This document shows, piece after piece, positions 5,408 to 5,440 of a stretch of DNA of 10,810 bases. Under the pieces are notes generated by a model. The model did no database searches, was not told the DNA's origin, and worked only from the letters and a program-made list of their open reading frames with translations. Each line of letters starts with the position of its first letter. Positions within the stretch are counted from its first letter, which is position 1. Both the position numbers and the translations under genes were made by a program. The stretch is from a virus (taxonomy: Duplodnaviria; Heunggongvirae; Uroviricota; Caudoviricetes): the IMG/VR virus record IMGVR_UViG_2531839446_000011, positions 1 through 10,810 of that record; one strand, written 5' to 3'.

Positions 5408-5440
5408 TCCATAAATATTATTGCAAATAATATTTATGGA
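5408..5440. promoter_or_regulatory. perfect 13-bp inverted repeat with 7-bp spacer, between the nleH stop and the nleF RBS
   Basis: tccataaatatta (5408-5420), spacer ttgcaaa, taatatttatgga (5428-5440). AT-rich, with no GC stem or T-run, so more likely an operator or RNA structure than a terminator. Confidence 0.4.

Follow-up and report, generated by a model that had tools for sequence, protein, structure and literature searches.

The spacer between nleH and nleF contains a perfect 35-bp palindrome that is specific to one lineage and probably arose by template-switch correction of an ancestral quasipalindrome, and that would have at most a minor intercistronic effect at the RNA level; moderate confidence attaches to this interpretation, which draws on the comparison of natural alleles. 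A reading of the repeat as an operator or other control element does not stand up when recurrence, conservation and covariation are tested. The palindrome was found in a 10,810-nucleotide stretch of viral DNA (referred to below as the window), which represents the cargo end of a lambdoid phage.

Genomic context

Both nleH and nleF lie on the minus strand, where they come after J, lom and a collagen-repeat tail-fibre gene; beyond nleF, an integrase and a protein with an exonuclease domain are encoded on the opposite strand. The chromosome of Escherichia coli strain D1 (NZ_CP010134.1) is 99.9% identical to the window. The Pfam OspG_kinase match corresponds to the open reading frame running from 6339 to 5449, and the nleH annotated in D1 corresponds to window positions 6330 to 5449. 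The relevant features are as follows.

5449..6330, minus strand: nleH, ending ...SKI-TAA (Pfam OspG_kinase; RefSeq annotation of strain D1)
5448..5453, minus strand: perfect −10-like TATAAT over the Ile and stop codons of nleH, with a poor −35 element (TTATTA, 5477 to 5472) at an 18-nt spacing
5384..5448, minus strand: nleH–nleF intercistronic spacer, 65 bp (open reading frame list and D1 RefSeq annotation)
5407..5441, minus strand: complete perfect palindrome, sense strand ATCCATAAATATTATT-TGC-AATAATATTTATGGAT (repeat search, sequence and RNA fold)
5426..5441, minus strand: upstream (5′) arm in the sense direction, with three derived substitutions that create complementarity (alignments and half-site scan)
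5423..5425, minus strand: centre or loop of 3 nt, sense TGC (TGT in E2348/69)
5407..5422, minus strand: downstream (3′) arm in the sense direction, AATAATATTTATGGAT, the same in the window and in O157-type alleles and deleted in O145/O103-type alleles
5392..5397, minus strand: Shine–Dalgarno sequence AAGAGG of nleF, 8 nt before the ATG at 5383 and unpaired with the palindrome (sequence and folds)
4814..5383, minus strand: nleF, 189 amino acids (Pfam NleF_casp_inhib; RefSeq annotation of strain D1)

The nleH gene of the window encodes 293 amino acids and is nleH1-like, with 92% DNA identity to nleH1 and 87% to the nleH2-type gene that usually precedes nleF, while its nleF shows 96.5% DNA identity to that of O157/E2348-69. 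The window allele is therefore a mosaic in which an nleH1-like nleH is joined to an O157/E2348-69-like nleF. Within 23 nt of the nleF 5′ untranslated region, four changes are particular to the window allele, among them a Shine–Dalgarno sequence of AAGAGG versus AAGGGGG. The homology of the nleH1-type loci (O157, E2348/69 and phages 434, cdtI and 2B8) with the window reaches only as far as about position 5437; beyond the shared `...TTTTATCCAG' these loci run on into a remnant of an IS256-family transposase where nleF would be. Given the end of homology at this point, the first bases of the palindrome fall at a module boundary between the nleH and nleF cassettes.

Homology to the prophage integrated in D1 ends at window position 4023, where the integrase gene (2948–4030, plus strand) has its 3′ end. 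In D1 the chromosomal yodB/zinT come next after nleF; the window and IMG/VR contig IMGVR_UViG_2531839667_000008 have in their place int, a small open reading frame and an exonuclease-domain gene on the other strand. Since int follows nleF and the D1 homology ends at 4023, the window has an attP-type arrangement (excised, circular or tandem) with the attachment core near 4023–4030. The 823-residue open reading frame at 215–2686 (plus strand) has a Rv2179c-like 3′–5′ exoribonuclease domain in its C-terminal 170 residues (E = 8e-67) and 640 N-terminal residues with no Pfam match; in phage Evi it bears the annotation `Exodeoxyribonuclease encoded by cryptic prophage CP-933P'. An imperfect, terminator-like inverted repeat with 14-nt arms (86% complementary) lies right past its stop codon at 2697–2732, and another with 20-nt arms (85% complementary) lies within the J tail-tip gene at 10245–10313.

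Extent and significance of the palindrome

The sequence-only reading had described a perfect 13-bp inverted repeat, tccataaatatta-N7-taatatttatgga, at 5408–5440, and this is present letter for letter. The description nevertheless understates the repeat: a search of the window gives perfect arms of 16 nt (5407–5422 and 5426–5441) around a centre of 3 nt (5423–5425). The palindrome takes up 35 of the 65 bp that the same reading had correctly given for the spacer. On the sense strand it begins 7 nt past the TAA of nleH and ends 9 nt short of the AAGAGG Shine–Dalgarno sequence, and thus lies near the nleF ribosome-binding site without overlapping it. The region is AT-rich, with 38% GC versus 49% across the window.

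The 10.8-kb window was simulated 2,000 times by a first-order Markov process (based on dinucleotide transitions) and another 2,000 times with the AT-rich composition of the nle region; not one of these 4,000 composition-matched simulations gave a perfect hairpin arm of at least 16, the longest being 15. A chance origin of the 16-bp palindrome is excluded, and the repeat is real and non-random. The half-site with at most two mismatches occurs three times, against an expectation of 0.29.

Allele classes of the spacer

Four classes of nleH–nleF spacer can be distinguished.

Class A: the window, D1, an IMG/VR contig (L007/L026) and metagenome contig L038; arm ATCCATAAATATTATT; 16/16 paired; −14.4 kcal/mol; 4 complete E. 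coli genomes
Class B: O157, O26, O111, O121 and EPEC E2348/69; arm ATCCAGATATATTAGT; 13/16 paired, with mismatches G·A, U·U and G·A; −7.5 kcal/mol; about 428 genomes
Class C: O145:H28, O103:H2 12009 and others; an 11-bp deletion takes out the downstream arm; no pairing and no hairpin; about 104 genomes
Class D: Citrobacter rodentium-type; arm ATCCGGTTATAGTAGG, centre CAT, other arm GATAATATGTATGGAT; 9 Watson–Crick pairs and 2 G·U of 16; no clear hairpin

The perfect form occurs in only four of the approximately 540 complete E. coli genomes that carry nleH–nleF (∼0.7%), and this minority class A lineage consists of atypical EPEC-like E. coli isolated from dog, monkey and food. The common spacer allele (O157, O26, O111 and EPEC E2348/69) is, as aligned, a degenerate copy of the repeat. 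In class C, comprising about 104 genomes, nleF and its ribosome-binding site are intact in sequence without the repeat, and the Shine–Dalgarno sequence, spacing and ATG of nleF are retained in all four classes whatever the state of the repeat. Between classes A and B the spacer differs at 9 of 65 positions (14%), compared with 12% for nleH and 3.5% for nleF; the spacer thus diverges as fast as nleH and faster than nleF. This non-conservation suggests that the repeat has little or no function. A slipped-repeat origin for the 11-bp deletion of class C is not supported, as the visible direct repeats do not fit a loss of 11 bp.

The outgroup class D was found by a homologous-protein search with NleF and by way of the contigs encoding the matches; its NleF shows 86% amino-acid identity and the order of nleH (293 amino acids), a 65-bp spacer and nleF is the same. 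An NleF protein-pattern scan of the species-genome contigs gave no match. Neither an upstream nleH nor such a repeat is present at the genes for more distant NleF homologues, which show 67% and 54% identity. Some 60–75 nt upstream of the 67%-identical homologue (contigs L050 and L051) there is a different AT-rich 8-bp inverted repeat, ATAATATG-N6-CATATTAT; the string ATAATATG is common to this repeat and to the C. rodentium-type arm, possibly by coincidence.

Origin of the perfect repeat

The sense downstream arm is identical in classes A and B, and all three arm differences between these classes fall in the upstream arm, at window positions 5436, 5434 and 5427 (arm positions 6, 8 and 15). The window has T, A and T at these positions, versus G, T and G in class B and in the outgroup D, and the G at arm position 6 is also present in class C and in nleH1-type loci. 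Each of the three window bases is the complement of the unchanged downstream arm. The agreement of outgroup D with class B at all three sites indicates that an imperfect quasipalindrome gave rise to the perfect state. At position 15 class C shares the T of class A, in an arm that is too diverged for confident alignment.

The probability that three random substitutions in the 35-nt repeat would repair exactly the three mismatches is of the order of 1e-5 (hand estimate). The pattern calls for selection or for a mutational process that is directed. Relatives have an imperfect inverted repeat at the same site, with 13/16 pairs in O157 and E2348/69 and 9/16 plus two G·U in the C. rodentium type, and the derived substitutions are clustered in one arm and all match the complement of the other, which is the pattern by which template switching is recognized. 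Quasipalindromes are template-switch hotspots in E. coli and are converted there into perfect or more perfect inverted repeats (PMC7202029). Perfect inverted repeats are also overabundant in E. coli, and preferential correction of imperfect ones has been proposed (Lavi et al., 2018, PMC5941160). In the mechanism proposed here, the ancestral nleH–nleF spacer would already have contained an imperfect inverted repeat; during replication, the nascent strand would have folded back and copied its own other arm in a single template switch, and in the rare lineage the upstream sense arm would thereby have been overwritten to the exact complement of the downstream arm, the presumed template.

The closest precedents are quasipalindrome template switches of the Ripley model, such as the thyA hotspot of E. 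coli and the lacZ QP reporters of the Lovett laboratory, in which, as here, an imperfect repeat is present in relatives and clustered changes in one arm turn mismatches into complementary bases to give a perfect palindrome (PMC7202029). Unlike those cases, the nleH–nleF template switch is inferred from natural alleles rather than observed, and selection for pairing is a less likely alternative; the correction of three mismatches over 10 nt in an intergenic prophage spacer is a further difference from the thyA and lacZ QP systems. The perfect inverted repeats catalogued by Lavi et al. (PMC5941160) resemble the nleH–nleF palindrome in being intergenic and AT-rich, with a short spacer and no assigned factor, but they are often conserved across orthologous regions, whereas the nleH–nleF palindrome is perfect only in the small fraction of genomes given above.

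No alleles of intermediate identity were found among the ∼540 complete E. coli genomes, and no locus with 14/16 or 15/16 pairing was found in 17 viral and 16 metagenome loci, class A being represented by only four genomes and two contigs. This absence of intermediates fits a single event in what is a thinly sampled lineage. The class A lineage is also old and mosaic, with nleH about 8% from nleH1 alleles, and the three changes could therefore have been acquired stepwise. The same derived, pairing-restoring pattern would result if a stronger hairpin or a symmetric protein site had been selected for in this lineage, and mutational bias and selection are not separable on sequence data alone.

Recurrence and protein-binding interpretations

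A search with the 65-bp spacer (E ≤ 10) against 5,426 complete E. coli genomes returned matches only at nleH–nleF spacers. The exact palindrome with a centre of 1–15 nt was found in IMG/VR only in a contig carrying the same allele, and 185,579 species-representative genomes yielded no more than two instances, both in contigs of Clostridia, from Zhenhengia yiwuensis (L024, 73–112) and a Tissierellaceae MAG (L025, 3548–3587). The Clostridia matches have 13-nt arms (TCCATAAATATTA and TAATATTTATGGA) and 14-nt loops in AT-rich intergenic DNA; their flanks and loops are unlike the E. coli locus and unlike each other, and they were rejected as relatives and are probably coincidental. No paired half-sites (at most three mismatches each) were detected outside the nleH–nleF spacer in 388 kb of loci that included the nleA, nleB2, nleC, nleD, nleG, nleH1, cif and espJ regions. 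Further paired copies of the half-site beside other nle genes, which the sequence-only reading had suggested looking for, are thus lacking in the loci searched.

These results bear directly on the proposal that the palindrome is a DNA operator for a dimeric transcription factor, which would gate an nleF-specific promoter or block read-through from nleH. The perfect dyad symmetry and the AT-richness are what such a site would be expected to show, and nle genes with dedicated cis-elements are known, an example being the NRIR upstream of nleB2 (PMC7142665). However, the palindrome has no second copy in the E. coli genomes and only the same allele in IMG/VR, the spacer has no consensus σ70 promoter, and the half-sites are unconserved in orthologous spacers, the symmetry being broken in class B, more so in class D, and lost in class C with the deletion of one arm. 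A contiguous 35-bp dyad with a 3-bp centre moreover exceeds typical dimer operators. The operator is therefore quite improbable, and the idea of a wider regulon is half refuted on the grounds that its own proponent had set, in that the motif does not recur; the ∼104 genomes with an intact nleF and no repeat are, on their sequence, in effect a natural deletion test. A second protein-based explanation, in which the repeat is an H-NS-type nucleation site or cruciform-prone DNA that contributes to silencing of acquired AT-rich cargo, is also improbable. nleA is reportedly silenced by H-NS, and each arm (TCCATAAATA) agrees with the high-affinity H-NS motif, TCGATAAATT, at 8 of 10 positions, which makes it a candidate site. 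The low GC content of the region and the repression of nleB2 by H-NS (PMC7142665) point in the same direction. Binding of H-NS, however, needs no perfect dyad symmetry, so that the perfection of the repeat would be left unexplained, and the arm sequence varies among alleles.

Relation to NRIR

The nle regulatory inverted repeat (NRIR) is reportedly a conserved 13-bp inverted repeat that lies upstream of nleH1 and nleB2 and is essential for transcription. In E2348/69, the 105 bp that separate the tail-fibre gene from nleH1 (L029, 39552–39656) contain a single inverted repeat, which is GC-rich (AAAACCGGAG-TCCGG-CTCCGGTTTT), and the same AAAACCGGAG-N5-CTCCGGTTTT repeat precedes nleB2 of O157 and the nleH of the window itself (6398–6424). 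The window copy, AAAAACCGGAG-TCCGG-CTCCGGTTTTT, lies about 70–95 nt upstream of the nleH ATG (6330) and is followed by a conserved block, TTGCAATGTCCGGGGGATATTTGTTAGG; repeat and block also precede E2348/69 nleH1 and O157 nleB2. This GC-rich repeat looks like the terminator of the tail-fibre operon and is probably the published NRIR.

The existence of an NRIR upstream of EPEC nleB2 (PMC7142665) and the coincidence of a `13-bp inverted repeat' beside nle genes could suggest that the nleH–nleF palindrome is a copy of it. Both are inverted repeats tied to non-LEE effector genes on lambdoid prophages. This identification was nevertheless rejected and is almost certainly wrong. The regulatory region of E2348/69 nleH1 holds only the GC-rich repeat, and the AT-rich half-site TCCATAAATATTA is absent from E2348/69 PP2 at up to two mismatches and from the O157 loci at up to three. 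The palindrome really has 16-bp arms and is AT-rich, whereas NRIR is inferred to be GC-rich, and it lies downstream of nleH rather than upstream of the nleH1 and nleB2 promoters. Conservation upstream of several nle genes is the hallmark of NRIR, whereas the palindrome is allele-specific, is confined to the nleH–nleF spacer and is unconserved even there.

Transcription signals

A promoter and terminator scan identified no consensus σ70 promoter and no terminator on the sense strand of the spacer. Together with the 65-bp spacing, this suggests that nleH and nleF are co-transcribed, and the two genes would be read as one transcript from a promoter upstream of nleH. No nleF transcription start, nleH–nleF operon structure or transcript mapping was found in the literature searched. 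The TATAAT at 5448–5453 is only a candidate internal promoter, from which transcription would start at the palindrome's first base; the nleH coding sequence, which the hexamer overlaps at the Ile and stop codons, accounts for its conservation. The best σ70-like match in the region, TTGATA-17-TATTAT (10/12; 5183–5211, plus strand), is antisense inside nleF and faces the palindrome. It could yield an RNA across the nleF start, but it is weak, there being 3 regional hits versus 5.6 in shuffles.

A weak intrinsic terminator or attenuator that ends the nleH transcript is highly improbable. A stable hairpin does follow straight after the stop codon, but only 2 of its 16 stem pairs are G–C, the tail is UCAUUUGUC in place of a U-tract, the terminator scan did not flag it and nleF has no consensus promoter of its own. 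The sequence-only reading had likewise judged that the repeat is not an intrinsic terminator, and this is borne out.

RNA structure

A stable hairpin, as that reading had also envisaged, is predicted for the 35-nt RNA of class A (−14.4 kcal/mol, z = −6.7); the predicted fold of class B is weaker (−7.5 kcal/mol, z = −2.6). A role for the hairpin in translational control, suggested at the same time, is not supported. The stem stops 9 nt before the Shine–Dalgarno sequence, and the segment containing this sequence and the AUG has no structure beyond chance in any allele, its folds in class A, class B/C and class D not exceeding those of shuffled sequences (z = 0.14 to 0.36). A second hairpin sequestering the Shine–Dalgarno sequence appeared in one minimum free-energy fold, yet was rejected since alone it was no better than shuffles.

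The helix shows no covariation, with a score of 0.000 on seven alleles and departures that are all unpaired cells. Across these alleles each stem pair is either invariant or broken, and no compensatory or wobble substitutions were found in any allele of the helix. When class D was added, 372 of 500 shuffles reached the observed pairing. A search of Rfam at a permissive E-value returned only noise hits far below the gathering scores.

The class A RNA would thus be expected to form a 16-bp AU-rich stem-loop between two cistrons, leaving the Shine–Dalgarno sequence and the AUG free. At most, such a stem-loop might give the nleH part of the RNA modest protection from 3′ exonucleases or loosen the coupling of the two cistrons a little, and as judged from the alleles it is not a conserved regulatory switch. 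A larger role is conceivable, either as a lineage-specific stabilizer or processing element of nleH–nleF, which would shield nleH from 3′ exonucleases or set the NleH:NleF ratio, or as the 5′-terminal stem-loop of an nleF mRNA started from the TATAAT. The strength of the predicted class A hairpin relative to that of the common allele, its position on the transcribed strand 7 nt past the stop codon and the perfect TATAAT 7 nt upstream of the first paired base are consistent with such a function, and the derived changes all raise pairing, as selection for structure would also do. Nevertheless, the lack of compensatory and wobble substitutions, the fall of pairing to 9/16 in the C. rodentium type, the deletion in ∼104 genomes with an intact nleF and ribosome-binding site, the unstructured Shine–Dalgarno/AUG region of all alleles and the absence of an Rfam family match all argue against it. 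The candidate promoter matches the −35 consensus at only 3 of 6 positions and failed the scan, its −10 element is fixed by the Ile and stop codons, and TATAAT occurs four times in this 1.7 kb. A functional stem-loop is therefore possible but unlikely. More specifically, the perfected 16-bp stem-loop may have been selected in the minority atypical EPEC-like lineage as a new post-transcriptional control point that would shift the NleH:NleF ratio or stabilize an nleF transcript from the TATAAT at the nleH stop codon; this is distinctly unlikely, and if true would mean that template switching had recently, and at a time that could be dated, given a virulence operon a regulatory hairpin.

Intercistronic mRNA stem-loops set differential stability in operons, for example the REP hairpins of malE–malF and those of the pap operon. 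The nleH–nleF hairpin is similar in being a stable sense-strand hairpin between two cistrons with no terminator features. It differs from the malE–malF and pap stem-loops in being AU-rich, in its lack of conservation and covariation and in being missing at many functional loci.

Biological implications

Rather than a conserved gene switch, the palindrome most likely represents a by-product of DNA replication. It carries little weight for the regulation of effectors, since it is not a switch shared among nle genes and since the copies in the reference strains EPEC E2348/69 and EHEC O157 are degenerate. What modest value it has lies in illustrating cleanly, among natural alleles, the `perfection' of a quasipalindrome, with three derived substitutions in one arm that all create complementarity. 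Perfect symmetry in AT-rich prophage cargo can accordingly result as a by-product of mutation and is no sure sign of a protein-binding site. If the hairpin does alter the balance of NleH to NleF in the rare lineage, it would constitute a small case of regulatory novelty arising from a replication error.
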